Source: Treponemataceae bacterium (GTDB lineage Bacteria > Spirochaetota > Spirochaetia > Treponematales > Rectinemataceae). Taken from it: DNA of 64,000 bases. The stretch spans positions 704,001-768,000 of the forward strand of contig CAXXVZ010000005.1 in NCBI GenBank assembly GCA_963678065.2. The letters run 5' to 3'. A model generated the notes under the pieces. That model saw only the letters and a program-made list of their open reading frames with translations, had not been told where the DNA came from and did not search any database. The position numbers and the translations under genes are program-made. Within the stretch, counting starts at the first letter, position 1; the number at the start of each line of letters is the position of its first letter. Positions 48,366 through 64,000 of the stretch are shown here, piece by piece.

Positions 48366-50007
48366 CAGCCTGTCGGGCTTTCATCCAAGGGGAATTTACT
48401 CAGCCGGAGGAAACGCGTAGTCTCATGGCATGAGCGCGCAATTCGTGAACATAGACCGCGAAACATCGATGCTGTTGCCTCCGGATCTCCGGGACTGGAT
48501 ACCGGAGGACAGCATGGTGCACCTCATCATCGAGACGGTGGAAACCCTGGATATCCAGAAGTTCTGGGTGAACGAAGGGGGCAGCGGGTGCGCGCAGTAT
48601 CCGCCGTCCATGATGTTGTCGCTCCTGATCTACTGCTACGCGACGGGACGTTTCTCGTCCCGGATGATCGAAGAAGCGAGTTGGTATGACGTCGCGGTCC
48701 GCTATATCTGCGGAGGCGACAAGCATCCGGACCACGACACGATCTGCGCGTTCCGGACAAGGAATCGGGATGCGTTCAAAGAAGCCTTTGTGAAAGTGTT
48801 GCTGATCGCCCAGGAACTCGGGTACCTGAAGAAGGTAGGCAGTGTGGCCGTGGATGGGACGAAAATCATAGCCAACGCCAGCAAGCACGCGGCGGTCAGC
48901 TACAAACGAGCGGAGGAGATGATTCGGCAGCTGGAGCTGGAAATCGAACAGCTCACGCGCAAGGCAGAGGAAGCTGACAGCACGCCCCTTGATACGGGAT
49001 TGAGCCTGCCGGAGGAGATCAAACGCCGGGAAGATCGGAAGACGGCGCTCACGGAGGCGCGGAAAGTCATTGAAGAACGGTACGAGGACGTGCGGAAGCA
49101 GAAGCAGCAGGAATACGAGGAAAAGATGGAAGCGCGGGAGGAGGAGCGGAAGAACGGGAAGGGGCCACGGGGCAGGACGCCGGTACCACCTTCGGACAAG
49201 CCTCCCGATACGGCGCAGTTCAATTTCACCGACGGGGAAAGCAGGATCATGAAAGCTGGCTCAGGCGAACATATGGAGCAGGCATACAATGCCCAGGCCG
49301 TGATCGACACGGAAGGCAGCATGCTGCTTCTGGGCGGCTACGTGACAAACCATGCCAACGACAAGCGGGAACTGGAACCGGCGGTGGCATGTGTAAATCC
49401 CGAAGTCCGGCACGTCAGTGTCGTGTGTGCCGATACCGGATATTTCAGCGAAGCGACCGTGAGCAGTATCGAGGCTGCCGGCACAGGGCCGATTGTGTAT
49501 TGCGCCATCGAACGGCAGGGCCATCATCGGACGGTAGAGGACTTGGAGCGAAAGCCGGCACTGGAAACGCCGCCTGCGACGGCTTCCGTCATGGAGACCA
49601 TGGCATTCAGGCTCAAGACGAAAGAGGGGCACCGCAACTACAAGAAGCGGAAGGAGACCATTGAACCGGCTTTCGGCATCATCAAGTCCGTATTGGGTTT
49701 CCGTCAATTTCTGATGCGCGGATTGGAAAAGGTGGGCATCGAGTGGGATCTCGTGACGCTTGCGTACAACTTCAAGCGCCTGCACAGGCTGGGGCAGAAT
49801 CGCAAAATTTCCGCGACGACGATCGAATTGGCAGGAAGTTGACCTGGGGACTTTCCGCAAGGCGAGAAAACCGCTTGAGAGAATGACGTCGCATCGGGAA
49901 ACACCGGTTGAGGGAAATCAAATCCTCGTTTTCAAGAAACAACATTACTTTCCACCCCCGAAAGCCTGGGCTATTGCGTTTTTCTTTGCTTTCAATCCGA
50001 CAGGCTG
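48366..50007 (+). mobile_element. IS1182-family insertion sequence
   Basis: Terminal IR CAGCCTGTCGG...CCGACAGGCTG flanked by CTAG on both sides (48362-65, 50008-11). Confidence 0.85.
48430..49842 (+). CDS. IS1182-family transposase
   Basis: YPPSMMLSLLIYCY, PDHDTI, DGTKIIANAS, YNAQ, ADTGY, EPAFGIIK. Confidence 0.92.
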   Translation: MSAQFVNIDRETSMLLPPDLRDWIPEDSMVHLIIETVETLDIQKFWVNEGGSGCAQYPPSMMLSLLIYCYATGRFSSRMIEEASWYDVAVRYICGGDKHPDHDTICAFRTRNRDAFKEAFVKVLLIAQELGYLKKVGSVAVDGTKIIANASKHAAVSYKRAEEMIRQLELEIEQLTRKAEEADSTPLDTGLSLPEEIKRREDRKTALTEARKVIEERYEDVRKQKQQEYEEKMEAREEERKNGKGPRGRTPVPPSDKPPDTAQFNFTDGESRIMKAGSGEHMEQAYNAQAVIDTEGSMLLLGGYVTNHANDKRELEPAVACVNPEVRHVSVVCADTGYFSEATVSSIEAAGTGPIVYCAIERQGHHRTVEDLERKPALETPPATASVMETMAFRLKTKEGHRNYKKRKETIEPAFGIIKSVLGFRQFLMRGLEKVGIEWDLVTLAYNFKRLHRLGQNRKISATTIELAGS

Positions 50008-50011
50008 CTAG

Positions 50012-50521
50012 CAGTATTTTGTATTTGTATAGATCATGTTTTCCTGTTTCATTTTCAAAAGCACTAGATTCTATACATATTCGTTTCATACCAGCTTTTT
50101 CAAGAACTTTCCAACTCCCAATATTTTCAATTACAGCTTCAGCAATTATTGTTTTGGCATTTTTTTCCTGGAAACCACATCTTATTAAAGCTTTTGCAAT
50201 TTCAGTTCCATATCCTTTTCCCCATTTGTCTTCTCGTAAATGATAGAATATTCCATATTCTGTAGCATCATTTCCTGAATTATTACCACCACAGTATCCA
50301 ATTATTTTATTTTTTTCTTTTACTACAAATGGACCAATGGAATTATTTTTAATCCACGCAAGTTGTCTATTTATTCTTTTGATACAATCATCAACAGATT
50401 GAATATTCCTGATAAAAGTATATTTTGTGACTGCGTAATTTACCCATATTGGGAATAAATCTATTGCATCATCAACATTAACTACAAAGAATGATAACCG
50501 ATTAGTGTTTAAACAACTCAT
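50012..50521 (-). CDS. RimJ/RimL-type GNAT (cassette gene); 3' end hit by the IS1182
   Basis: ATG 50521 with GGAG upstream; WGKGYGTE, NIGSWKVLEKAGM; frame runs into the IS at CTAG. Confidence 0.8.
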
Positions 50522-50678
50522 TATAAATAAACTCCGTAGAAGGAATATTAGTAAAATATCTATTTTTTCTGCCGCCCACAGGGCCCTTATAACATCTTTT
50601 TATGCCCCCATAGTAAATATATGCGAATAATGATTCAAACATATAGTTAACATCAGAGATCCGCCCCAAAAACATTGC

Positions 50679-50813
50679 ATCTAACGTTTTGTGCCTCTGA
50701 CGTTTCGGACCGCATCGGCGGGCCGAAATGTGCCTGAGTGAAGTGAGCGCATGCGAGCGGAACGATGGCCGAGGAGCCATGAAATGGCGACGAGCAGGGG
50801 CACGGTGTTAGGC
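50679..50813 (-). repeat. attC-like site 1 (divergent copy)
   Basis: + strand ATCTAAC...GTTAGGC, 135 bp. Confidence 0.82.
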
Positions 50814-50833
50814 GATGTGTGTGCGCGACTGTC

Positions 50834-51232
50834 TTACCAAATTACTTTTAGTCCATCTTCTTCATATTTTTTAAAATTTTCATCTTTACTTATTATTCCC
50901 ATCTTTCTATGAAGTGCTTGCCATATCAACATTCGATCAAATGGATCTTTATGATCCTCATAATAACTCAATTCATTATATGTACTGGATTCATCTTCAT
51001 CCAAAGTAATTATTGAACCCAATTGTTTCGCATATTTTGGTAAATCCTTGATCTCTATTCCTTCCAAGGTATATCGGTGCATTCGAACTTTTATCGCTAT
51101 TTCCCAAAATGAAATAGTGCTGATATAGATTCCAGTATCTTTATTTTTAAGTATATCAGATACTCTTTTACTTAACTTATCAGAATCCAATATAGACCAA
51201 ATAAATGTATGTGTATCAAGTAAATACATCAT
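50834..51232 (-). CDS. PIN-domain toxin (VapC-like)
   Basis: YLLDTHTFIW, STISFWEIAIK, HKDPFDRMLIWQA. Confidence 0.92.
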   Translation of the reverse strand: MMYLLDTHTFIWSILDSDKLSKRVSDILKNKDTGIYISTISFWEIAIKVRMHRYTLEGIEIKDLPKYAKQLGSIITLDEDESSTYNELSYYEDHKDPFDRMLIWQALHRKMGIISKDENFKKYEEDGLKVIW

Positions 51233-51235
51233 ATT

Positions 51236-51463
51236 TTATCCCAAAAACTCTTCAACAGTAATTTTCCCATCTCCCATGATGGAAAATGATGCTTTCCCAT
51301 TGAGCATACCTATTTTTCGTTGTTTTTTTTCTTCATTCGGTACAAGCATTGCGATAGGTTTTTTTGCTTTCCCATACAGTATCCTAACTTTTTCTCCATG
51401 CTTTACGAGTTCAAGGAGTTCAGAAAAGTGGCTCTTGAATTCTCCAACCGTCATCTCTTTCAT
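51236..51463 (-). CDS. Phd/YefM-type antitoxin
   Basis: MKEMTVGEFKSHFSELLELVKHGEKVRI; true start 51463 (the ORF-track extension lies inside attC 2). Confidence 0.87.
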   Translation of the reverse strand: MKEMTVGEFKSHFSELLELVKHGEKVRILYGKAKKPIAMLVPNEEKKQRKIGMLNGKASFSIMGDGKITVEEFLG

Positions 51464-51469
51464 ATCCCA

Positions 51470-51498
51470 AGTATACGTTATTCTTTTCAAGTTGTCAA
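51470..51498 (-). promoter_or_regulatory. Cassette-internal sigma70 promoter, probably leaderless transcript
   Basis: TTGACA-17-TATACT, then 6 nt to the ATG. Confidence 0.72.
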
Positions 51499-51520
51499 CT
51501 ATATCTCGCGCACACATTTC

Positions 51521-51660
51521 GCCTAACGTTTCCGGCCTGCGACGTTTTGGCCCGCATCGGCGGGACAAAATGTGCCTGAATGAAACGAGCGCATGCGAGT
51601 GCAATGAAGGCCGAAGAAGGAGCCGAAGGCGACTGATGAGCGTGGGCAGTGCTGTTATGT
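51521..51660 (-). repeat. attC-like site 2
   Basis: GCCTAAC...GTTATGT, 140 bp. Confidence 0.88.
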
Positions 51661-51683
51661 GAAGTTTCCCCCGATCTTCAACC

Positions 51684-52136
51684 CTATTCCTTTATCTTTT
51701 CCTGTTTTTTATCTTTTATCTCATGCTTCATGATTTCCAAATATTCTTCTGCATTTACTATACTCATCTCCTTTCCAACATAATCATCCCCATTTCTTGT
51801 TATCAAAACACTGATGCCATGTTCAAGTGCTGCATAATATTGTATTGTATCTTCTAGATCTTTGAACTTCGATGCCAATACCAAATCTATTATTTTTTCA
51901 TCAACATTCACTAGTTTGGTTAATAATCTTAATTTCCGAAGATGCAGCAAGGCTAGTTCTTGCCCTAACCCTTTTTTCACTATGTAATACAAATTTGAAA
52001 ATATCACAGGACTGATATACGCTTCAATTTTTCCCTTTTCTGCCAGTGAGAATAGTGTTGCTGCCGCTGGATAAAATGGCTGACGTTTCAGAAACATATC
52101 CAGGATGATATCCGTATCGATAAATACCTTATTCAT
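51684..52136 (-). CDS. PIN-domain toxin
   Basis: VFIDTDIILD, KDLEDTIQYYAA, LITRNGDDY. Confidence 0.9.
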   Translation of the reverse strand: MNKVFIDTDIILDMFLKRQPFYPAAATLFSLAEKGKIEAYISPVIFSNLYYIVKKGLGQELALLHLRKLRLLTKLVNVDEKIIDLVLASKFKDLEDTIQYYAALEHGISVLITRNGDDYVGKEMSIVNAEEYLEIMKHEIKDKKQEKIKE

Positions 52137-52378
52137 TTGTATTTATCCGTGAGATAGTCCACATATCCATCATCCATTGCCGAAATATCCACAGCATCAA
52201 GAATTCCAGATAATTCCATAACCAGAGGCGAATAGTGGGGTTCAGTTTTATCTTCAAGCGCAAGGATTTTGAAGTAGTCTTCAACTAATCGGGAAAGACT
52301 TCGTTTCCGTTTTTGAGCATATACTTTGGCGGTTTCTATGACCGTTTGATCCAACTTGAGAGTCAGTTTTGTTTCCAT
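52133..52378 (-). CDS. DUF6364-like RHH antitoxin
   Basis: METKLTLKLDQTVIETAKVYAQKRKRSLSRLVEDYF; ATGA overlap with the PIN gene. Confidence 0.85.
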   Translation of the reverse strand: METKLTLKLDQTVIETAKVYAQKRKRSLSRLVEDYFKILALEDKTEPHYSPLVMELSGILDAVDISAMDDGYVDYLTDKYK

Positions 52379-52389
52379 ACATTACCTCG

Positions 52390-52427
52390 ATACGTATAAT
52401 ACTAATAAACAAAATACGTATTGTCAA
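52390..52427 (-). promoter_or_regulatory. Promoter with two palindromic operator candidates
   Basis: TTGACA-17-TAGTAT; palindrome ATACGTAT at 52390-97 and 52414-21. Confidence 0.68.
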
Positions 52428-52461
52428 TATCTTTCTCGTACTCTCTCTCGGGGGAAATTTC

Positions 52462-52602
52462 ACATAACGTTTGCCTGCTACGACGTTGTGGCGAGCATCG
52501 GCGAGCCACAATGTGCCTGAGCGAAACGAGCGCAAGCGAGTGTAGCGAATGGCCGAAGAAGGAGCCGCAGGCGACTGATGAGCGTGGGCAGCGCTGTTAG
52601 GT
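52462..52602 (-). repeat. attC-like site 3
   Basis: ACATAAC...GTTAGGT, 141 bp. Confidence 0.88.
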
Positions 52603-52646
52603 GCTGTGCTCCGGCTAATTTTAAATTATGTAATTTGATATTATAT

Positions 52647-53585
52647 CTATAAATAAGGACCCAAGAACTTATCTCCATTGAAATGAATCATGTGAGTTGG
52701 ATTATCAGAAACCCAAACTTCTGTTTCCCAAGCGATTTCTGATACATATTTTGCCATTACTTGTTTATTAGGGAAAGCAGTAACATATACCTTACTCATT
52801 TTTGAAGCTTTGAATAAACGATTCAATTCTATATGTCGCTTGCTATCAACAGGACCATGACTTGTTACAGATTCCACTAAAACCAACCATTTCTTTTGAG
52901 GAAGATAAAATATTACATCTGGCATTTTCCCATGCTGATCAACATCTATACCGATATTTTTAGCATTCGTTTTATCGAAATAGCCCCATTTATCTCCCGT
53001 ATCACCAATATAAATCAGTATTGCGTCATGCAAAAAACGTGGTGCGAATTGTTCAATAATATCCTTTATGAGATTGTTATGATCTCCAGGACTTAACCTA
53101 ATATTTGATATATTATCAAATATTACTGGAATCATTAACATTTTTCTTTCATTCGAATACCTTTCTGCCAAAAAACCAATATCTTTATGAAATTCATCTA
53201 AAGTAATAATATATTCGTATGATTTATAATTTTTTACAACACTAAGAGCAGCAGGGGATATTTGATATACTGCCTTAGGACTATTAACAGGTCGCTCTGG
53301 ATTGTCAGGGTTGTATAAAGCTATTCCTGCCTCTACAAGTTGATGCATGCTAAATCTACGAAATGTCTCTCTGGAATTGGGAGCATATTCCTTTTGGTAG
53401 TATTCTCTTGCATATTCCATCATCGGAGTTATTCCAATAAGTGGATCTTCAGCTTCTTCCCATTTTGAATTTTCTTTAATATTTAATAATGCTAACAAAC
53501 AAAGGGCTGTTCGCTCATTCTGTTGACCTTTAGGTACTTTCAGATCAGAGAGAATTTTCAATGCTTCCTTAATCTTTTCATTCAT
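52647..53585 (-). CDS. BsuBI/PstI-family type II restriction endonuclease
   Basis: YAPNSRETFRR, VNSPK, HGKMPDV, ESVTSHGPV, IAWETEVW. Confidence 0.9.
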   Translation of the reverse strand: MNEKIKEALKILSDLKVPKGQQNERTALCLLALLNIKENSKWEEAEDPLIGITPMMEYAREYYQKEYAPNSRETFRRFSMHQLVEAGIALYNPDNPERPVNSPKAVYQISPAALSVVKNYKSYEYIITLDEFHKDIGFLAERYSNERKMLMIPVIFDNISNIRLSPGDHNNLIKDIIEQFAPRFLHDAILIYIGDTGDKWGYFDKTNAKNIGIDVDQHGKMPDVIFYLPQKKWLVLVESVTSHGPVDSKRHIELNRLFKASKMSKVYVTAFPNKQVMAKYVSEIAWETEVWVSDNPTHMIHFNGDKFLGPYL

Positions 53586-55062
53586 ATTCTTTCATCACCT
53601 TCATAAATATATCATCCAAATCCGTTTCGGCATTTTTGAAATATTCTATTCCCATATTTTCTATCTGCTCTTTCGTAGGATATTTTATATTTTTCAGATC
53701 AGTGGCATTGACTTGAGTATGTCCACTAAACTCTCTAAATTTTTTATCAAAATATTCAGTATTAAGGTATACATATAAACCACCAGCTAAATATTTATCA
53801 ATACCATGTTTATTCTTGTGAATAATATTAAGATGATTCTCTGCTGTAAAGTATTCGCCTTTTATATCATTATCTAGTAATAAAAAAGCCTTAATTCTTT
53901 TTTTTTCTTCTTTTGAGGAAAATCTTTTAACTAAAACATAACAACCATTTGTATATGCTATTTTTGATTTTTCATCATCAGTCAAAATGATAGAATTGGG
54001 CTTTTTAGAAACAACTGGCCATATTAACCCATTACCTTTAAAATGAATGGGATAAAGCAAGGGTATTGAATTACTAGAAAGACCACTAACCAATTTTTCT
54101 TTCATTCGAAAATCCACAATTGGACCAGTAGATATTTCTATTCCAAGTTCCATAAATTTGGTAAATATATTATTTTCTTTTTTTATTTTATCCGATACCA
54201 ATGCTGGTATGCGTATATATTTATCTTCATCATGACTATTTACAATCTTACTAAATTCAAAAAATGATTCTGAATAATCGTTTAATGATTTATCCTCAGA
54301 TGAGCTAATGCAAACATTGGGTGGTTGATCATTACCTTTCCGAAGAACAACTATAACATTTTCTTGTAATACTGATTCCTCTTTAAAAGCATCTCTTCGA
54401 GAATTAAAGGTATGTATTTGGATTATTTCTGTTTGTTTTAAAATAAATTTTCTGAATGGGAAAAAATACAACCCATTGCAAAAGCTTCTAGGAAGAATAG
54501 CAACAACAACTCCATTTTTTTGAAGTTGCAAAATGGAAACTGCCAAAAACGCCGAATAAAGATTTGCTGTCTCAACGCCAATATCTCTTAGTGATAAACG
54601 ATATTCAGAATTGCTATTGATTTTTTTATATGGAGGATTCATAATTATATGTGAATATTTTTTATTTAATCCCCAGCCGATATCATAAGCAGAATTTTTT
54701 ATAAAATCCGATTGGATAAGTTTTATTGAAATATTCGAATATTTTTTATACCTGTTTATAACACTATTCAAGTTTTGAATTATTGTTTTATCAAATTCAT
54801 ATGCATCAATATTGATACATCCGGAAAATGATGATTCAATTTTTTTTTCAAGAAAAGCAGAAAACAAAATTCCCAAACCAGCGCCAGGATCAAGTAATTC
54901 GATATTCCCTTCACTATGGCCGTATTTTATCAATAGTGCTGCCATAAAGTTTGCAATTTCTATTGGTGTTAAATATTGACCATATATAGCTTTGTGAGTT
55001 TTTTTTGTTGTAGAAATGCGCTGAGATCGTAAACTATCTAAATGCATCAGGGTATTCATCAC
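53578..55062 (-). CDS. N6-adenine DNA methyltransferase (BsuBI/PstI/Eco57I-like, gamma class)
   Basis: GQYLTP, LLDPGAGLG (motif I), IMNPPY (motif IV), STGPIVDFR, SGHTQVNATDL. Confidence 0.9.
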   Translation of the reverse strand: MMNTLMHLDSLRSQRISTTKKTHKAIYGQYLTPIEIANFMAALLIKYGHSEGNIELLDPGAGLGILFSAFLEKKIESSFSGCINIDAYEFDKTIIQNLNSVINRYKKYSNISIKLIQSDFIKNSAYDIGWGLNKKYSHIIMNPPYKKINSNSEYRLSLRDIGVETANLYSAFLAVSILQLQKNGVVVAILPRSFCNGLYFFPFRKFILKQTEIIQIHTFNSRRDAFKEESVLQENVIVVLRKGNDQPPNVCISSSEDKSLNDYSESFFEFSKIVNSHDEDKYIRIPALVSDKIKKENNIFTKFMELGIEISTGPIVDFRMKEKLVSGLSSNSIPLLYPIHFKGNGLIWPVVSKKPNSIILTDDEKSKIAYTNGCYVLVKRFSSKEEKKRIKAFLLLDNDIKGEYFTAENHLNIIHKNKHGIDKYLAGGLYVYLNTEYFDKKFREFSGHTQVNATDLKNIKYPTKEQIENMGIEYFKNAETDLDDIFMKVMKEYE

Positions 55063-55119
55063 TTAGTAGTTTATTCTGAAATCTACTATAGTTCAACTGT
55101 AGCTGACATTATATAGCTA

Positions 55120-56871
55120 CCTGAAATCCCGGGAATAATTTAACCTACAAGACATTTTACGCATAGAACAGAAATAATTCCCACTATTATCACGACATAC
55201 ATAGTGACAGGTCCTTCAGGTGTAGGCATAATGTGTTTAACCTACACAAAGAGGGACTGCCATGTCATGCATAGTCCACCAGAAAGTCGGTCAGCACACC
55301 TACCTGTATGAGTCAGTCTCCTACCGTGATGAACGGGGTAAGCCACGGGCGCATCGGGTTCCCATCGGAAAAGTAGACCCGGAAACGGGACAGGAAATCT
55401 ACAAGCAGGAATACGTGTCGCGTATGGCAGCAGCGGGAACTCCGATCGCTGTCTATTCGCCACCACCGACTTTCACAGAACAGGATGTGCAAAAATCCTC
55501 AGTCCTGCATACCGGCATGGCCCTTTTGCTGAAGCAGTGTGCACAACAAACCGGACTTTCCGAAGTTTTGCGCGATGCATTCCCCCAGACACACGAACTT
55601 TTATTTGCACGTGCCTGCCACATCGTCTGCCGCGGGGAACCGTCCGCATATTGCGAGCAGTGGCTGGAAGACACCGACCTCACGGTTCCCGCCCGGCTCA
55701 GCTCGCAACGGATTTCGGATCTTGTGTCTTCACTGCCAGCATCCCAGGTTCTGCGGTTTTATCAGGCATGGGTCGCCACGCGCAGTGAACAGGAATATCT
55801 GGCGCTGGATATCACCAGCATCTCGTCGTATTCACAGCTCATCGACGATGTGGACTGGGGATACAATCGCGATCAGGAAAAACTGCCACAGGTGAATATC
55901 TGTCTGCTCACCGGGGAAGAGTCACACCTTCCCGTGCGCATGGTTGTCTATGACGGAAGCATCAAGGACGTGAACACTCTGAGAACGACGATGGCCGGTC
56001 TCACCGACGGTATCGGATCAAAGGTTCGCATCGTCACCGACAAGGGCTTCACCAGCAAACGGAATATCGAAGCCATGCTCGCGTTCGGGAATGTGGAGTT
56101 CATCATGGCCCTCCCGTTCACGCTCACCTTTGCGGAAAACCAGGTGCGCAGCGAGAAAAAGGATATCGCGGATATCCGGAATACCATGATGAGCGGCAGC
56201 GATGTCTTCTATGGCGTGACCAAGCGGCGTACATGGGGCACAACGGAGCTGTATACCCACATCTGCTATAACGAGGTGAAAGCGACTCGTGAACGGAACC
56301 ATCTGTATGGCTATGTCGCGAACCTGCGATCGCAGGCGCTGTGCGACCCGTGGAACGAGAAACTGAAAGCCGAGTTTGCAGAATATCTCATCATCAGAAA
56401 ATCGGAGAAGCGAGAGGATGGAGTCACGGTCAGTATCCGCCAGGATGTGGTGGACGAGCATCTGGCTCATGCCGGGTGGATGGTGTGCGTGAGCAATTCC
56501 GTGGATACCGTGCAGGAAGCGATCAGGATCTACCGGGCAAAGGATGTGGTGGAAAAAAGCTTTCTGCGCACCAAGAACAGCCTGGGTATCAACCGGCTAC
56601 GGGTACACTCCCAGCAAGCGATGGATGGAATGATGCTGGTAGCCTTCATCGCATTGATTCTCAACAGTCATATCCATCGGATCATGCTGGAGAAAAACCT
56701 GTACCGGAACATGAGCATGACGGATCTGGTGAAGACGATGGAGAAACTCAAGGTCATGGTCATCGGTGATACGCGAATCGATTTCCCTGCTACCAAGAAA
56801 CAAAAAGAGATTGCAGAGGCTTTCGGTCTCACGAGCCTTTCGGTAGGTTAAATAATAGGCGGGATTTCAGG
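55120..56871 (+). mobile_element. IS1634-family insertion sequence
   Basis: 28-bp imperfect IR starting CCTGAAATCCCG (24/28 match); 6-bp target duplication TAGCTA (55114-19, 56872-77). Confidence 0.88.
55262..56851 (+). CDS. IS1634-family transposase
   Basis: YLYESVSYRD, LDITSISSYS, WGYNRD, DKGF, YRAKDVVEKSF. Confidence 0.88.
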   Translation: MSCIVHQKVGQHTYLYESVSYRDERGKPRAHRVPIGKVDPETGQEIYKQEYVSRMAAAGTPIAVYSPPPTFTEQDVQKSSVLHTGMALLLKQCAQQTGLSEVLRDAFPQTHELLFARACHIVCRGEPSAYCEQWLEDTDLTVPARLSSQRISDLVSSLPASQVLRFYQAWVATRSEQEYLALDITSISSYSQLIDDVDWGYNRDQEKLPQVNICLLTGEESHLPVRMVVYDGSIKDVNTLRTTMAGLTDGIGSKVRIVTDKGFTSKRNIEAMLAFGNVEFIMALPFTLTFAENQVRSEKKDIADIRNTMMSGSDVFYGVTKRRTWGTTELYTHICYNEVKATRERNHLYGYVANLRSQALCDPWNEKLKAEFAEYLIIRKSEKREDGVTVSIRQDVVDEHLAHAGWMVCVSNSVDTVQEAIRIYRAKDVVEKSFLRTKNSLGINRLRVHSQQAMDGMMLVAFIALILNSHIHRIMLEKNLYRNMSMTDLVKTMEKLKVMVIGDTRIDFPATKKQKEIAEAFGLTSLSVG

Positions 56872-56903
56872 TAGCTATTATATTTTTGTTGCCGGAGCAT
56901 TGC

Positions 56904-57044
56904 ACCTAACGTTTGCCTGCCTACGACGTTGTGGCGAGCATCGGCGAGCCACAATGTGCCTGAATGGAACGAGCGCATGCGAGTGAAATGAAGGCCGAAG
57001 AAGGAGCCGCAGGCGACTGATGAGCGTGGGCAGTGCTGTTATGT
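56904..57044 (-). repeat. attC-like site 4
   Basis: ACCTAAC...GTTATGT, 141 bp. Confidence 0.88.
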
Positions 57045-57754
57045 GCTGTGTTTTTGGGGCACACCCAGTTTCTTCTCTTCATTTCGATAATTCTTATTCC
57101 TTTACTCTTAACCCTTTGTCTTTGCTTTTCAATACTTTATTCTGATACATAAGTATTTTATTTCTCTATACCATAGCTATTTATATACTTTGACCTGGCC
57201 TCTTTTATTGTATCCTATTACCTATATATTTTATCCCTAACTTTATATTTATGGTTCGACTATTATAGTTCAGTACACGTTTTTCGATGTTTCCAATTCA
57301 AAAATCTATCATTGTTACTCATAAACCATATAGTACATAATACCACCCAATATTTTTCTCTACTTCAAAATCACTTTTTTTGGATTCACCTATTTCATGG
57401 GACATATCTCATGAGAAAAATAGCAGCACCTTAGAAAAGCGTTTTGAACTCTATGATTATCCCATATTCAAGAATCGTATCTTTTTTCTATACCATTTTT
57501 TGTACTGCACATACCAACAACACTGAATATAGCACTGATCCACAATTACTACAGGATTGTTTATTACTAACTCTTTCGTTTTTAGTACAACATGACTTAT
57601 GAATTTACCTTGTAGTCAATGGGGAATATCGCAATTCACTTTGTCCTACTAATGAAAGATTTAGTAACTCAATATCAGGAGATCCTATTTTTGAATACTC
57701 TGACGTCATTCAGGATCATACAGTTCAGTAAGAGATCCGCCCCAAAAACATTGC
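57045..57754. other. ORF-less AT-rich cassette (~710 bp)
   Basis: Bounded by matching cassette ends; the ORF track shows no ORF of 60 aa or more wholly inside it. Confidence 0.7.
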
Positions 57755-57853
57755 ACATAACGTTCGCCTGCCTACGATGTTGTGGCGAGCATCGGCGAGC
57801 CACAATGTGCCTGAGTGAAGCGAGCGCATGCGAGTGAAACGAAGGCCGAAGAA
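57755..57853 (-). repeat. attC-like site 5, left part (interrupted by IS21)
   Basis: ACATAAC...GGCCGAAGAA, then the IS21 end. Confidence 0.82.
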
Positions 57854-57950
57854 GTGGAAATGGTAAACTGAATTCCCCAGCAGTTGGCAAATAGGATTCC
57901 CCACCCACAGGGGCCTTGGCCGCTATGCTTGCGAGCATGCGGCACAAGAA

Positions 57951-59498
57951 ATGATTACCATGAAGGACTACAACATCGTACGAACAGGGCACAGGCAAGG
58001 ACTCACAGTCAGCGCACTAGCGGTAAAACTTGGCAAGGACCGCAAGACCGTGAGAAAGTACCTGCGCATGGACAATGACCAATTCTTACGGTATCTCGAG
58101 CGAATGGCAGAACGCGGTAAGGCTTTTTCGGTCTACAAGGACGAAATCCTCGAGATTTTTAAAAAGAACCACGAAGGCAGAATGGTCTACTCATCGTCCG
58201 TCCACGACTACTTAAGCGAGAAATACGGAGAGCTTCCAGGCTCGGACCGTACGTTGCGGAACTACCTGACGTATCTCAAGGCATCCGGTGCGATTAAGGT
58301 GGGCCTGTGTCGGGAATATCGTCCTGTGGAGCCTCTGGCCTACGGCAAGCAGGCTCAGATTGATTTCGGCGTAGAGACGACGAACATCGGAAAGGCTTGG
58401 TTTGTTGTCGTAGTACTCTCACGAAGCCGTTACCGCTACGTAGCGGCCCAATCCAGGCCCTTTACCAGCGAGGATGTGATCGGCCATCTCCTGGACGCCT
58501 TCGAGTTTTTTGGCGGTATCACCGAAGAACTCGTCATGGATCAGGACCGGACAATGATTGTGACGGAAAACCTTGGCGACCTCACGACGACAAAAGCCTT
58601 TGCTGAGTTCGTCGCAGAACAGGGACTGCGGCTTCGTGTCTGCCGTGCGGCCGATCCGGAATCGAAAGGAAAGGTCGAGAATGCGGTCAAATACGTCAAA
58701 ACGAGCTATTTCTCGAGCCGCAGCTTCGCGACCTTCGACGAACTCCAGGCAGGCATGCGCAAATGGCTCTTACGAGTGAACGCAAAACTGAGCCAAGCCA
58801 CGCGTCTCATGCCGCTCGCGGACTTCGAAGCGCACGAGAAACCCATCTTGCGGGCGCTCCGAGCGTCTATTTTCCGCGCGGACACCGCATCGGGCTGCCG
58901 AGAGAGCCGTAACGTGGATCAGAAAAGCCTTATATCGATCGCCGCGACCAGGTACTCGGTGCCGAACTCGTACCGGCTCAACGAGGTCACTATCGAGCGC
59001 AAGGACGGACTCATCCTGGTATTCGATACGAAGACGGGTATCCAGATCGCGGCGCATCGCGAAGCGGCAACACCCGGCGGAACGGTGCTGGACAAGGCTC
59101 ACTATCGCGATCGCGAAGGATCCCAGGAAACGCTCCGCGCGGATCTTGTCGCCGCAGTAGATGATCTTCCCGAGTGGGGGAGCTTCGTCGATGGTATCTA
59201 TACCGAGTATCGACGCTACTTCCGGGAGCACGCTGGCCGACTTCGGAAGCTTCTCAAGCGCAACATCGACAGAGAGAAACTCGTGCTTGCATTGAAGTTC
59301 TGCCTGGATAGAGGACTTGCAAGCGCCCAGGATCTCATCGACGCGGTCAACAGCACGACGCCAGTGCCCGCAGTGGCGCCTTCGCCGTACCGCGGCCTTC
59401 ATCAAACCAGAGACCTTCCACTAGTTGCCACACGCTCGGTCAGCGAGTATCAGCGATTCCTCGACGCGCTCGTCGATACGCAGAGGCACGAAGAATGA
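57951..59498 (+). CDS. istA: IS21 transposase IstA
   Basis: HTH DRKTVRKYL, AQIDFG, SRSRYRY, PESKGKVENAVKYVK. Confidence 0.92.
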   Translation: MITMKDYNIVRTGHRQGLTVSALAVKLGKDRKTVRKYLRMDNDQFLRYLERMAERGKAFSVYKDEILEIFKKNHEGRMVYSSSVHDYLSEKYGELPGSDRTLRNYLTYLKASGAIKVGLCREYRPVEPLAYGKQAQIDFGVETTNIGKAWFVVVVLSRSRYRYVAAQSRPFTSEDVIGHLLDAFEFFGGITEELVMDQDRTMIVTENLGDLTTTKAFAEFVAEQGLRLRVCRAADPESKGKVENAVKYVKTSYFSSRSFATFDELQAGMRKWLLRVNAKLSQATRLMPLADFEAHEKPILRALRASIFRADTASGCRESRNVDQKSLISIAATRYSVPNSYRLNEVTIERKDGLILVFDTKTGIQIAAHREAATPGGTVLDKAHYRDREGSQETLRADLVAAVDDLPEWGSFVDGIYTEYRRYFREHAGRLRKLLKRNIDREKLVLALKFCLDRGLASAQDLIDAVNSTTPVPAVAPSPYRGLHQTRDLPLVATRSVSEYQRFLDALVDTQRHEE

Positions 59499-60235
59499 GC
59501 GCCCTCGCAGAATCCGCTCGTAAACTGGAGTCCCTGCGGCTTCGTGGCGCGTCGTCACGGCTTCCTGAGCTTCTTAAACAAGCTGAAAGCGGGGGACTGA
59601 CATGCCTTGCCTTCCTCGAGACCCTCGTGGACGTCGAACTACAGGATCGCGGCGACAGGCGCCTCAAACGAGGCCTCGCCATGGCCCATTTTCCCGTCGT
59701 AAAGCGCCTCGAGGATTTCAAACTCGGCCGAGTAGCAGGAATTGGAAAACGAGACCTCTCTGAGCTCACCGAGTGCTCTTGGATAGACCGTCACGAGAAC
59801 CTTCTGCTCTTCGGGCCTCCTGGACTCGGAAAGACCCATCTCGCAATCGCTCTTGGCCATGTGGCCGTACGCAAAGGCTATTCGGTTTGTTACGAGCGCA
59901 TGACCTCACTGGTGAAGCTCCTCGTGCGCTCTGACGCCGCACGCAGCGCTCAGTTCAGGCTAAGCCGGCTCGCGAAGGCCAACCTCATGATCATTGATGA
60001 GATTGGCTACACTCCTATCGAGCGCAAGGAAGCCAATCTCTTTTTCACCTTCGTCTCGGATCTCTATGAACGTGCCTCTATCGTCGTGACGAGCAACAAG
60101 GACCTGAACTCTTGGTCAGAACTCATGGGCGACGAGGTTATGACCGCAGCCCTGTTGGATCGTCTCATGCATCACGCAAAGATTTTCTCCCTGTCAGGGG
60201 AGTCATATCGCATCTCTGCAAAGAAGGAGGAATAA
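59495..60235 (+). CDS. istB: IS21 ATPase IstB
   Basis: GPPGLGKTHLA, IIDEIGY, VTSN, LLDRLMHH. Confidence 0.94.
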   Translation: MSALAESARKLESLRLRGASSRLPELLKQAESGGLTCLAFLETLVDVELQDRGDRRLKRGLAMAHFPVVKRLEDFKLGRVAGIGKRDLSELTECSWIDRHENLLLFGPPGLGKTHLAIALGHVAVRKGYSVCYERMTSLVKLLVRSDAARSAQFRLSRLAKANLMIIDEIGYTPIERKEANLFFTFVSDLYERASIVVTSNKDLNSWSELMGDEVMTAALLDRLMHHAKIFSLSGESYRISAKKEE

Positions 60236-60298
60236 CCCTCTACCGGGTGGGGATTCCTAGTTGCCATATGGTGGGGAAAACTACTTGCCATTTCCACA

Positions 60299-60363
60299 AA
60301 GCGAGTGTAGCGATGGCCGAAGAGGGAGCTTGCGACCGATGAGCGTGAACAGCGCTGTTAGTT
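60299..60363 (-). repeat. attC-like site 5, right part
   Basis: AAGCGAGTGTAGCGATGGCCGAAG...GTTAGTT. Confidence 0.8.
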
Positions 60364-60481
60364 GCAGTCGTGACCTTCGAGCGCGCTTGGATGGGGAGAC
60401 TTGTCTCCTCATCCAATACTCTATCTTGCGCGCGTTCTTCTCTTCCTCTTCTCTTACCCTTATTTTTTCTTTCACGATTGC
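60364..60481. other. Mini-cassette with 118 bp of cargo and an internal hairpin
   Basis: Matching cassette ends; hairpin at 60387-60416. Confidence 0.7.
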
Positions 60482-60621
60482 AACTAACGTTTCCGGCCTG
60501 CGACGTTTTGGCCCGCATCGGCGGGACAAAATGTGCCTGAATGGAACGAGCGTATGCGAGTGGAATGAAGGCCGAAGAAGGAGCCGAAGGCGACTGATGA
60601 GTGTGGGCCGCGGTGTTATCT
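60482..60621 (-). repeat. attC-like site 6
   Basis: AACTAAC...GTTATCT, 140 bp. Confidence 0.88.
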
Positions 60622-60774
60622 GCTTTTCGCCCCCTCTTCAAACCTTTTTACCTTCTCTTCATCTTCCTCTTTTCTTCACCCTTTTACGTTTGTTTTTATC
60701 GTTATTCCCTATATGATTTTAGAGCCATTCCATAGTTTTCAAAATTCTATTCACACTATTTTTGTTATACTCTA

Positions 60775-62169
60775 GAGGCTTTTTCAAAACTTCGTAATCC
60801 GCTTTGTAAAAAAGCGAGTTATTGTAACTGAAGCTTCGTTTTTGCACAGTAAAAATTACATGTGCAGTAAAAAGGGCTCTCTTTTCAGTGCAAAAGATGG
60901 ACTACCCCTACAAAATCCGGTTCTGCCGGATTGCCCGGTTACGATTTCTGCAGTTCGGGAAGGATGAAGTACTGCAAAGCCTTGACGGCCGCCAGAACCA
61001 CTACCCCGCACATGAGCAGGAATGATACTTTCTCAAATCCCCGTACAAATATCTGACCCGGTATGAGCCAATCCTTCAAATGCGAGTTTGCACGTTCAAC
61101 CGTTGTCCTGATTGTGTACCGCTCCTTCTGTGACGGCGAAAATGGTTCCCGTTCCGTCCCACGACGCGTATTCCGATCAATCAGCGGAACACGCCCACGT
61201 CCCTGGATATAGGTCGCGATGGGATCCGCATCGTATGCAGCGTCCATGACTGAATACAGATGTCGGACCTTTTTCTCTGTTATCTTTTCCAGAGGAATCG
61301 CTACTTGCGAATCATGAACATTGGCGCCGGTTACGACTGCTGAAATAGGGAATCCTGTGTCGCTGACATCAAGGTGCAACTTGTATCCTTTCCATGTTTC
61401 CCTATTCCCCTGGCTGTTCTTCTTGCATCCCCATGCACAGTCTTTGGATAGTTCTGACAAGGATTTCCTGACGCTTTGGCCGACTTGCTTTTCTATCTGT
61501 GTCGGCTCCTTCACAGGCCGAACTTCTCCTTTTCGGGGACGACCTCGTTTCCGTTGCGGTGTCACGGAAGAAACAGCTTCACGTTTGGCAGGTACAGGTT
61601 TTTCTCGTGCTCGTATCTCCGTCGCATCCCGATTTATGTGTCCGACGATATGGCCGTCATGACAATCCTTCACCATGGTATTCAAAGTCTGAATCAGCGG
61701 AGTCTTTTTTGAAAACTCCGCGTAGCGACGCGAAAAGGTCGCAGAGCTTGGAACGGAGGTGAAGCCGCATATCCTCCGCAGATTCGGATCGTTGATCAGC
61801 CTGTTCCTAAGGTCCGTGACTGTCGCTATGTGGAATACCGTTCGGGCGAAAAACGCCCGCATGATCGGTTCGTTCCGATGTGGAGGACGGCCAGTCCGTG
61901 CACATGGTGATGTAATCCGTGGCTGAGCATCTTCAATGACTCTGAGCAGGGCGATAAAAAAGCGATGCTCGTCGGTGAGATATTCTTCGAAACATCGCTG
62001 GATATCGTAGGAAATCGGCAAAAGTATTTGCGCTCCGCCCAGTATTTCTGGTATGGTTTTCATCAGCGGGGGCTCCTCCTGGTGACGTTTGTGTTGCAAC
62101 ATCATCATACAGGTTCTGTCCCCGCTTTTCATTAAAATTCGTTCATCTCATGACTTTTGAAAGAGCCTC
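60775..62169 (-). mobile_element. IS5/IS1182-like insertion sequence
   Basis: IR GAGGCTTTTTCAAAA / TTTTGAAAGAGCCTC; 4-bp target duplication TCTA (60771-74, 62170-73). Confidence 0.82.
60939..62132 (-). CDS. DDE transposase (DUF772-like N-terminus plus DDE domain); start may be the downstream MKTIPE
   Basis: VPSSATFSR, DATEI, GYKLH, ANVHDS, MDAAYD, RTTVERANSHLK. Confidence 0.85.
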   Translation of the reverse strand: MKSGDRTCMMMLQHKRHQEEPPLMKTIPEILGGAQILLPISYDIQRCFEEYLTDEHRFFIALLRVIEDAQPRITSPCARTGRPPHRNEPIMRAFFARTVFHIATVTDLRNRLINDPNLRRICGFTSVPSSATFSRRYAEFSKKTPLIQTLNTMVKDCHDGHIVGHINRDATEIRAREKPVPAKREAVSSVTPQRKRGRPRKGEVRPVKEPTQIEKQVGQSVRKSLSELSKDCAWGCKKNSQGNRETWKGYKLHLDVSDTGFPISAVVTGANVHDSQVAIPLEKITEKKVRHLYSVMDAAYDADPIATYIQGRGRVPLIDRNTRRGTEREPFSPSQKERYTIRTTVERANSHLKDWLIPGQIFVRGFEKVSFLLMCGVVVLAAVKALQYFILPELQKS

Positions 62170-62288
62170 TCTATACTTTTCTTATTCCATTTTTAACAAC
62201 TCTTTTCACGTTTTCTTACTTTTATAAATTTCGTATCATTATACTTTATCTCTTTTTAATATCAATAATTATTATCTATAATACCTAT

Positions 62289-62322
62289 TTGACAAACATG
62301 CCCATTATATTTATAATATAAT
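62289..62322 (+). promoter_or_regulatory. Consensus sigma70 promoter with overlapping operator palindrome; probably leaderless brnT mRNA
   Basis: TTGACA-17-TATAAT, 6 nt before ATG 62324; inverted repeat ATTATATT-TAT-AATATAAT over the -10. Confidence 0.78.
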
Positions 62323-62323
62323 T

Positions 62324-62614
62324 ATGATACCAATACGGTTTTCATGGGATGAAGCTAAAAATACGATCAACATCGCAAAACACAACATTTCATTTGATGA
62401 AGCTCAAACCGTATTCCATGATCCGTATGCCAGAATCATCTCTGATCCAGAACATTCAGATCAAGAAGATCGTTTCATACTGTTAGGTTTGAGTCAGAAG
62501 CTCAGACTTTTGATTGTCTGCCATTGTTATCGTTCCGATGACGACATCATCAGGATCATTTCTGCCAGAAAAGCATCAAAAACTGAATCAGTATATTATG
62601 GAGGACCGCTATGA
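62324..62614 (+). CDS. brnT: BrnT-family toxin
   Basis: FSWDEAKNTINIAKHNISFDEA, EDRFILLG, IRIISARKA. Confidence 0.92.
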   Translation: MIPIRFSWDEAKNTINIAKHNISFDEAQTVFHDPYARIISDPEHSDQEDRFILLGLSQKLRLLIVCHCYRSDDDIIRIISARKASKTESVYYGGPL

Positions 62615-62820
62615 AAACTGAATACGATTTTTCCCAATCAAAATCCAATCCCTATATAAAGAAACTCAGAAAACAGATCACCATCAGAATTGATATAGAG
62701 ACGATTGAGTATTTCAAGAAGCAGGCTGAAACCACAGGGATTCCCTATCAAAACCTGATAAATCTCTATCTGTATGATTGTGCTTCGAAATCTAAAAAAC
62801 TTGATCTTGCCTGGAAGTGA
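62611..62820 (+). CDS. brnA: BrnA-family antitoxin
   Basis: MKTEYDFS...KQITIRID..TIEYFK...IPYQNLINLYL; ATGA overlap with brnT. Confidence 0.88.
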   Translation: MKTEYDFSQSKSNPYIKKLRKQITIRIDIETIEYFKKQAETTGIPYQNLINLYLYDCASKSKKLDLAWK

Positions 62821-62846
62821 TTTTCTTCCTCTCGGGGGCGAATTGC

Positions 62847-62987
62847 AGATAACGTTCGCCTGCCTACGACGTTGTGGCGAGCATCGGCGAGCCACAATGT
62901 GCCTGAGCGGAATGAGCGACAGCGAGTGTAGCGATGGCCGAAGAAGGAGCAGCAGGCGACTGATGAGCGTGGGCAGCGCTGTTATAC
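62847..62987 (-). repeat. attC-like site 7
   Basis: AGATAAC...GTTATAC, 141 bp. Confidence 0.88.
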
Positions 62988-63833
62988 GCTTTTTGGCGCT
63001 GCTCTTTCTTCTATTCTCTTCAAGTATTCTAATACCTTTCTTCCATTCTCTTTTCTTTTCGTATATCCCAATTCTTTTGATACAACAGATTCAATTTCCA
63101 TAACTATTTGACCTGACACATATAATGATTCCCAAAACTTTTGATCTTCATAATCGTTATACGTTTTTTCTATCTTTTCCCATAATTCTTCTGATACATT
63201 TTTTTTGATAAATCTTCCATACTTCCCAACATTGATTTTCCAACTATGTTCGTGTCCAATATGCCAAGATACTATTTTCAGAAAACACTCTCTGACAATA
63301 CTCTCATACATATACTTTGCATAACATAATTCTTTTCGTGCTATTCCTTTTCCAACATTGATAATACACCACCAAAACTCATTTACCGTTTCATAATACT
63401 CATGTTCTGTTGGTTGTTTTGTAACATATGAAAAATCCGATGGTTCATCCAATTTTTTTATTCTATGATCCTTATCAAGTACTACTTTGGTTAGGCTATC
63501 ATGTAACTTATTTTGAATTGTAGCTACTGGATAGAATGAAGCATCTATCCGTAATCCATCACTAAATTGCATCAAGAATATTGGGAATTCTATAGAATCC
63601 TCAGTACAACAATTGTGCTGAAGAATAAGAAGATCTCCAAAGAAGGCCATCCAGGATTGATCATCAATGAACTGTTTATATGAATTGACACCAAAGATAA
63701 CGTCATAATCTGAATAGTCATCGGATTGAATACTCGGATTGACACGAGATCCATTCAGCAAAACAAGACGAATAGACTCATGTTGATCACCAAAGGAAAT
63801 AATCTGATTCAACACTTGTTCAGTAGTCTTCAT
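62982..63833 (-). CDS. Aminoglycoside 6-adenylyltransferase-like protein (AadK/AadE family)
   Basis: IRLVLLNGSRVNP, DDYSDYDV, FLMQFSDGLRID, NEFWW, VGKGIARKEL, VGKYGRF; ATG 63833 with GGAG upstream; stop TAA inside the attC R'' box. Confidence 0.87.
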   Translation of the reverse strand: MKTTEQVLNQIISFGDQHESIRLVLLNGSRVNPSIQSDDYSDYDVIFGVNSYKQFIDDQSWMAFFGDLLILQHNCCTEDSIEFPIFLMQFSDGLRIDASFYPVATIQNKLHDSLTKVVLDKDHRIKKLDEPSDFSYVTKQPTEHEYYETVNEFWWCIINVGKGIARKELCYAKYMYESIVRECFLKIVSWHIGHEHSWKINVGKYGRFIKKNVSEELWEKIEKTYNDYEDQKFWESLYVSGQIVMEIESVVSKELGYTKRKENGRKVLEYLKRIEERAAPKSV

Positions 63834-63854
63834 TTTTCTCCAGCGCCAAATTGC

Positions 63855-63995
63855 GTATAACGTTTGCCTGCCTACGACGTTGTGGCGAGCATCGGCGAGC
63901 CACAACGTGCCTGAGCGGAATGAGCAAAGCGAGTGCAGCGATGGCCGAAGAAGGAGCCGATAGGCGACTGATGAGCGTGGGCAGTGCTGTTAGTC
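63855..63995 (-). repeat. attC-like site 8
   Basis: GTATAAC...GTTAGTC, 141 bp. Confidence 0.88.
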
Positions 63996-64000
63996 GCTGT

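Follow-up and report, generated by a model that had tools for sequence, protein, structure and literature searches.

The window analysed here, a stretch of 64,000 bp (C5:704001-768000, C5 being contig CAXXVZ010000005.1) from the 5.27 Mb genome of a Treponemataceae bacterium, carries from position 50682 onward the far end of a long array of gene cassettes separated by attC-like sites. We identified 177 attC matches on the contig, with repeated sites of 125-136 bp. The array extends to C5:931442, so that ~164 kb more of it lie past the window, up to an attI-like core (near C5:931570) and the gene of a 393-aa recombinase (C5:931895-933076), which is located on the minus strand and oriented into the array. 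Because this gene points into the array, we treat the minus strand as the top strand, consistent with the folding of the sites, whose plus strand is more stable than the minus strand in 167/167 models. As in integrons, the long array has palindromic sites and a bottom strand that folds (177 sites; 167/167). The window contains the following features (strand in brackets where assigned; the start arm lies at the cassette start and the end arm at its other end):

48430-49842, DDE transposase near the array end
49772-50521, GNAT gene beyond the start arm of the truncated cassette
50663-50685 (-), start arm of the last, truncated cassette; no partner end found within the window
50682-50810 (-), attC-like site, the last of the array
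50807-50828 (-), end arm of the PIN/Phd toxin-antitoxin cassette (50807-51527)
51506-51527 (-), start arm of the PIN/Phd cassette, 20/22 complementary
51524-51657 (-), attC-like site
51654-51674 (-), end arm of the PIN_3/DUF6364 cassette (51654-52468)
52448-52468 (-), start arm of the PIN_3/DUF6364 cassette, 20/21
52465-52599 (-), attC-like site
52596-52615 (-), end arm of the BsuBI/PstI-type restriction-modification cassette (52596-56910)
55262-56851, DDE transposase within the restriction-modification cassette
56891-56910 (-), start arm of the restriction-modification cassette, 18/20
56907-57041 (-), attC-like site
57038-57060 (-), end arm of a cassette without long ORF (57038-57761; family of 7)
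57739-57761 (-), start arm of the cassette without long ORF, 21/23
57758-60360 (-), attC-like site interrupted by an IS21-family element
about 57855-60296, IS21-family element (IstA 57951-59498, IstB 59495-60235)
60357-60488 (-), 132-bp ORF-less cassette, arms 60357-60373 and 60472-60488, 16/17
60485-60618 (-), attC-like site
60615-60634 (-), end arm of the BrnT/antitoxin cassette (60615-62853; genes on the plus strand)
60939-62132, DDE transposase within the BrnT/antitoxin cassette
62834-62853 (-), start arm of the BrnT/antitoxin cassette, 18/20
62850-62984 (-), attC-like site
62981-63001 (-), end arm of the streptomycin-adenylyltransferase-family cassette (62981-63861; gene 62982-63833, PF04439, E 8e-84)
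63841-63861 (-), start arm of the streptomycin-adenylyltransferase-family cassette, 19/21
63858-63992 (-), attC-like site

Matching ends across the cassette array

A first-pass annotation of the window had noticed that, reading inward from the core sites, each of the seven complete cassettes begins with the reverse complement of its other end, and we recovered all seven pairs with the same coordinates and match counts. Both ends could be defined for 170 cassettes of the array, leaving out six junctions with a broken attC. No more than two of the first 17 positions are mismatched in 153/170 cassettes (79 of the 92 distinct end pairs), compared with 10/8318 foreign pairings; the extension, whose absence from other cassettes the annotation had named as an argument against the pattern, is thus kept array-wide. 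The covariation claimed for the two ends is also borne out over the whole array. At positions 13-20, own ends of the 81 end types have a mean of 7.40/8 matches vs 2.15 for foreign ends (7 or 8 matches in 72/81), and the mutual information between the ends is diagonal, reaching 1.26-1.78 bits at these positions, whereas no cell exceeded 0.35 in 200 shuffles. The repeat stops at positions 17-25 in 77/81 end types, most commonly at 22. Of the few failures that were inspected, the long cassettes with unmatched ends are probably fusions, one is a chimera and one is shifted by a single base. In the cassette at C5:813652, start positions 5-6 are those of the 132-bp family and the remainder those of its own family, suggesting a likely recombination chimera. 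No differences were seen where public contigs run across the two ends of the 62981-63861 cassette, and an assembly artefact was rejected for this pair on that ground.

The annotation had further described a fixed AA bubble at positions 10-11, of which only position 11 proved invariant. This position is paired in 0/170 cassettes, reading A at the cassette start in 81/81 end types and G (71) or T (10) at the other end, which corresponds to T:G (156/170) or T:T (14/170) on the better-folding bottom strand and to A:C or A:A on the top strand. Position 10 pairs in 42% of the end types. The confinement of all mismatches to positions 10-11 is correct for the seven window cassettes but does not extend to the array, where the 77 well-paired types hold 10 further mismatches, 7 of them at position 13. 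Similarly, the notion that each cassette has its own repeat stands in so far as own ends match over foreign ones, but several end pairs are reused around unrelated cargo.

The pairing extends much less far in the canonical integron of the same genome (C3:96956-125000; C3:2358208-2370575), whose IntI scores 450 bits on TIGR02249. There, the cassette ends pair to position 8 (82-100% at positions 1-8, 9% at position 9 and 0% at position 12, over 11 junctions). Bouvier (2009; PMC2727003) gives 9-11 nt of end pairing in most cassettes, which replaces the ~7 bp that the annotation had taken as the standard for attC. The extension described here is well beyond both baselines and appears specific to this type of array. 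The canonical cassettes on C3 begin with a small GC hairpin directly after the core.

Almost a third of the cassettes (50/170), including the first one at attI, are copies of the 132-bp ORF-less cassette, often in runs; this cassette contains an inner hairpin and a purine tract. The family of the 57038-57761 cassette (7 members in the array) comprises 500-720-bp cassettes without long ORF, whose interiors are 70-95% alike and whose ends are almost constant. Just inside the stem, where pairing ends, both cassette ends are purine-rich on the top strand throughout the array, the end side preferring AAGA; we saw by eye no direct-repeat scar immediately inside the stem, only this purine bias. Four IS21-family insertions split the repeated site in its central part, at 57855-60296 of the window and at C5:788042, 822896 and 835431.

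Folding models, computed with 25-30-nt flanks and without protein or supercoiling, agree with the proposal that the excised circle gains a long outer stem: the circle form is more stable than the array form in 147/167 models, by a mean of -11.8 kcal/mol. The R boxes pair with a probability >0.5 in 164/167 circles on either strand, vs 69/167 array sites on the bottom strand and 37/167 on the top strand. Folding would therefore favour circles without choosing a strand within them, and the suggestion that the long stem favours integration over excision fits these models.

The part of the outer stem at positions 13-22 (hereafter the clamp) is conserved. Among homologous cassettes, grouped into families by interior sequence only, 16/288 sites vary at positions 13-20 vs 81/720 at positions 26-45 (p = 0.0045); with two spurious families subtracted by hand, the counts are 4/272 vs 45/680. 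Two cassette families show paired changes that are the same at both ends. The greater conservation of the clamp over adjoining DNA weakens the annotation's alternative that the repeats are purely a scar of cassette creation, while the reuse of end frames remains in its favour.

The recombinase beside the array and its putative attI

The recombinase is a tyrosine recombinase (PF00589, E 5.7e-39), whose catalytic R, K, H, R, H and Y residues are invariant across 83 homologues. Its sequence indicates that it is devoid of the IntI-specific additional domain, described by Cury (2016) as the I2 helix of about 35 residues, because its alignment with the canonical IntI of the same genome contains a 41-residue gap, because it aligns to VchIntIA in two pieces (and to XerA in one stretch with small gaps only), and because it scores 197 bits on TIGR02249, vs a cut-off of 265. 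The motif spacing across the IntI-domain region is 60-61 residues in 19/19 extracted relatives vs 102 in the canonical IntI. The best family model is recomb_XerA_Arch (213.8 bits, just below the cut-off of 220), and XerA is also the top fold match of the predicted structure (pLDDT 83), followed by VchIntIA. The enzyme falls below the curated cut-offs of XerC (172 of 335), XerD (164 of 330) and XerA (214 of 220), and hence does not qualify as the host XerC, XerD or XerA. Its N-terminal domain (L009:6859-7077) weakly resembles UvsW, XPB and the SMARCAL1 HARP domain (best Z 6.0; Pfam HARP 24.8 of 25); the canonical IntI has an N-terminal stretch that looks similar by eye, and we assign no role to this domain.

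Relatives of the recombinase are present in 19/61 nearby genomes (at 1e-40) and in 44/401 genomes across the phylum (at 1e-55), and homologues were also named from WOR-3 and Nitrospirota; a phage collection gave 2 weak matches. The label 'Treponema-type IntI' was dropped, as the enzyme is devoid of the IntI domain and a family of the same order (f3) gave 0/74 matches at 1e-55. Escudero (2020; PMC7790495) describes the I2 domain as required for the capture of cassettes and as the innovation that gave rise to integrons. Since PMC8138268 calls the insertion 'not fully conserved' in an integron-like subgroup, I2-less enzymes may have been seen before and not linked to sites such as those described here.

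The attI is placed by position and sequence only, its first G|TT core lying 323 bp past the stop codon of the recombinase gene. It could be scored in 19/45 loci, 26/45 being not scorable. In 17/19 of them, the highest-scoring inverted match to the profile of cassette positions 2-12 precedes the first core by 6 nt (9 loci) or 7 nt (8 loci). With these inverted matches, the attI resembles a pair of 11-bp arms separated by a 6-7-bp spacer; each arm matches cassette positions 2-12, and one of them is formed by those very positions. This is close to the 11-6-11 geometry of dif, the 6-bp spacer itself occurring in 9 of the 19 loci. The suggestion of the first-pass annotation that the fixed bases could be a determinant of protein recognition gains a putative basis, as the same motif appears to form the second attI arm. 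In the attC geometry, for which 165 of the 177 sites were selected by pattern, the inner arm likewise has GACG at positions 8-11, and compensatory C:G/T:A changes occur in the 165 matched sites. The inner stem pairs bulge-free for 7 positions; a GAG bulge on the R'' arm comes next, and the spacer is unequal, with 7-10 nt on one strand opposite 6-7 nt on the other.

Extending the analysis from the whole array to related ones, as the annotation had proposed, we found that the pattern recurs in relatives across the phylum. Unconstrained scans detected paired ends and the position-11 mismatch beside the same recombinase family in several families of the order and phylum, the paired ends of relatives often stopping at positions 17-20. 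In a motif-based count, 64/93 distinct cassettes from 12 genomes had 4 or 5 matches at positions 13-17, many of the misses spanning an undetected site; the pattern used in this count forced the position-11 mismatch and is uninformative on that position. In metagenomes, where most contigs are short and a complete matched pair was present at 8/80 loci only, 11 pairs were obtained, 10 of them mismatched at position 11; some loci have the array upstream on the other strand. The matching ends are thus a real, array-wide and phylum-wide feature. In one relative (G245), two insertion-sequence copies in opposite orientation flank a part of the array that is inverted.

Possible roles of the matching ends

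We consider it rather probable that the two ends of a cassette each supply one half of the outer arm of a recombination site folded from single-stranded DNA, on which the adjacent I2-less recombinase acts. Positions 2-12 (TTANNNGMAAT) would form its 11-bp binding arm. The cassette start would have to keep A11, since on insertion it would become the double-stranded right arm of attI. The other end, never A at position 11, would place T11 of the cleaved bottom strand opposite G or T, and A opposite C or A in the top-strand hairpin. The two hairpins would then differ, and the T11 asymmetry would help the enzyme to pick the strand, hence the orientation. Positions 13 to ~22 would act as a clamp that pairs only when the own ends of a cassette meet, as in the excised circle, which would then mimic a double-stranded Xer-type site, like the CTX phage hairpin. 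In-array sites would fold poorly, favouring insertion over excision and keeping the 177-site array stable. The unequal, mismatched spacer (7-10 vs 6-7 nt) would block the second strand exchange, replacing I2 in this function, and an enzyme without I2 would require just such a long closed stem. A possible precedent is provided by XerCD, which, without I2, integrate CTX via a hairpin mimicking double-stranded DNA, according to Escudero (2016; PMC4792948).

Several observations weigh against this mechanism. Both strands of the circles fold equally well (164/167 each), so that strand choice would rest wholly on the asymmetry of position 11 and of the bulge, and the folding models themselves depend on short flanks free of protein and supercoiling. 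Mismatches outside positions 10-11 have no clear bottom-strand wobble bias (5 vs 2 of 15). The left attI arm of this very genome scores poorly (-0.4 bits), and more than half of the attI loci were among those that could not be scored. A phylogenetic tree left the recombinase unplaced relative to IntI (14 labelled loci are not in the tree), joints in public contigs are accounted for by other copies of the array, with no circle or rearrangement that could be told from them, and the genome encodes a canonical IntI that could act in trans.

Other explanations of the ends deserve consideration. The clamp could be a scar or chassis of cassette building, with cargo entering a ready frame with copied ends and the pairing playing no role in recombination. 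The presence of the same end pairs around unrelated cargo, here and in relatives, is what this predicts; on the other hand, the clamp varies less than the DNA beside it, with interiors differing by up to 20%, the cargo exchange in the best class can be explained otherwise, by an internal canonical-type attI, and the mismatch fixed across the phylum is left unexplained. We regard a chassis without further role as unlikely, although it is compatible with the folded recombination site and both can be true. Another option is that the ends act within the array, own ends pairing across the genes on single-stranded DNA, so that the arms of the two flanking sites would be tied up and excision silenced, or the cassette pre-aligned for excision. 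Array-form sites do fold poorly, the own-end duplex is the more stable partner, and neighbouring ends match slightly above chance at positions 5, 6, 7 and 9 (2.26 vs 2.07, p = 0.008). This effect drops to p = 0.06 without short cassettes, the pairing would have to bridge 0.7-4 kb, and cassettes with large inserted elements retain perfect ends. We regard a role of pairing within the array as improbable.

It is very unlikely that we are dealing with a normal sedentary integron on which the canonical IntI acts in trans, its end pairing being an extended form of the 9-11 nt already known. The genome does contain such an IntI, and GTT/AAC cores, bottom-strand folding and R''-arm bulges are common with integrons, but the canonical array has different attC sites with 8-nt pairing, and the I2-less enzyme adjoins arrays of the present type in many genomes. 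We give least credence to a role in RNA, such as a transcript stem for stability, processing or reverse-transcribed cassette creation. The ends flank whole transcription units and one cassette contains a group II intron; however, the coding (top) strand has A:C at position 11 and folds worse in 167/167 models, the fixed bases are also found at attI, which is a DNA site, and Rfam gave 0 matches in 50000-64000.

The folded recombination site used by the I2-less enzyme would combine traits of several known systems. As in sedentary chromosomal integrons, among them spirochaete integrons in which intI faces the array, a tyrosine recombinase lies beside attI and a long cassette array, with GTT/AAC cores, homogeneous 125-136-bp repeats, a better-folding bottom strand and cargo of toxin-antitoxin, restriction and resistance type. 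Unlike in those integrons, there is here no IntI-specific domain, position 11 is a fixed T:G, the arms have 11 bp, the ends pair over 17-25 nt (vs 9-11 nt in Bouvier 2009 and 8 nt in the C3 integron), and the bulge appears to follow the inner stem instead of lying within the L box, where canonical attC sites have an extrahelical G (L''). The site would work like an integron site, yet its presumed enzyme is devoid of the IntI domain. To our knowledge, no fixed wobble at position 11 is recorded for the superintegrons of Pseudomonas and Vibrio, whose older descriptions (Vaisvila, 2001; Rowe-Magnus, 2003) may mention imperfect repeats at cassette ends beyond the core. A literature search, which left out these older superintegron papers, found no description of such ends or of an I2-less cassette recombinase. 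The enzyme of the Pseudomonas and Vibrio systems is a canonical IntI, unlike here. An I2-less recombinase and a hairpin that mimics double-stranded DNA, the latter only presumed in our case, are common with the folded attP of CTX/XerCD, as outlined in Escudero (2016; PMC4792948), but the enzyme is here dedicated and encoded beside the array, and its substrate is a shuffled cassette library. The family and fold matches and the 11-6-11 geometry recall Xer/dif and archaeal XerA, from which the extra, weakly HARP-like N-terminal domain and the position at the head of a cassette array set the enzyme apart.

We propose, as a wider reading that is slightly less likely than not, a second class of integrons, widespread in spirochaetes and beyond, that would recombine folded single-stranded cassettes without the I2 helix held to be essential, using a self-closed stem that mimics double-stranded DNA and a fixed T:G wobble that sets orientation, some of its cassettes carrying a landing site of canonical integrons that would link both systems. 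If true, this class would be a living parallel or a forerunner of the transition from Xer to IntI, and a 177-site array with an I2-less enzyme would illustrate another solution to cassette capture. Such arrays would be classed as lacking an integrase by tools that require the IntI domain, so an enzyme may have been missed in some of the unexplained 'CALIN' arrays (Cury, 2016).

Cassettes that share end pairs

Cury (2016) calls the way in which cassettes are made unknown, a question on which shared end frames and an attI inside a cassette bear. End sharing involves four cargos in one class and three in another in this array, and four cargos across two relatives; one end pair is common to this genome and a relative, with different genes. 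In the four-cargo class (C5:773261-776315, 776443, 839222, 854810 and 877698), a single 23-24-nt end pair frames unrelated cargos (PNP_UDP_1, DUF1706 and two without Pfam match) behind a shared leader that ends with a GTT core in 3/4 cargos. The leader profile matches the C3 site heading the canonical cassettes (E 8.7e-5), and by eye the leader can be aligned with the canonical attI. Of the four cargos, three have the start of a canonical cassette or a canonical attC at their end, which in one case contains a group II intron. This class is probably one cassette carrying a canonical attI, which would explain its changing cargo, and a cassette of one integron system may here offer a landing site to the other.

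The group II introns at C5:773394-775424 and C3:118109-120136 are 93% identical, and each lies within a canonical attC. The second class (C5:799406, 861113 and 930247) contains three unrelated genes between like ends, with a GC-rich hairpin inside each end.

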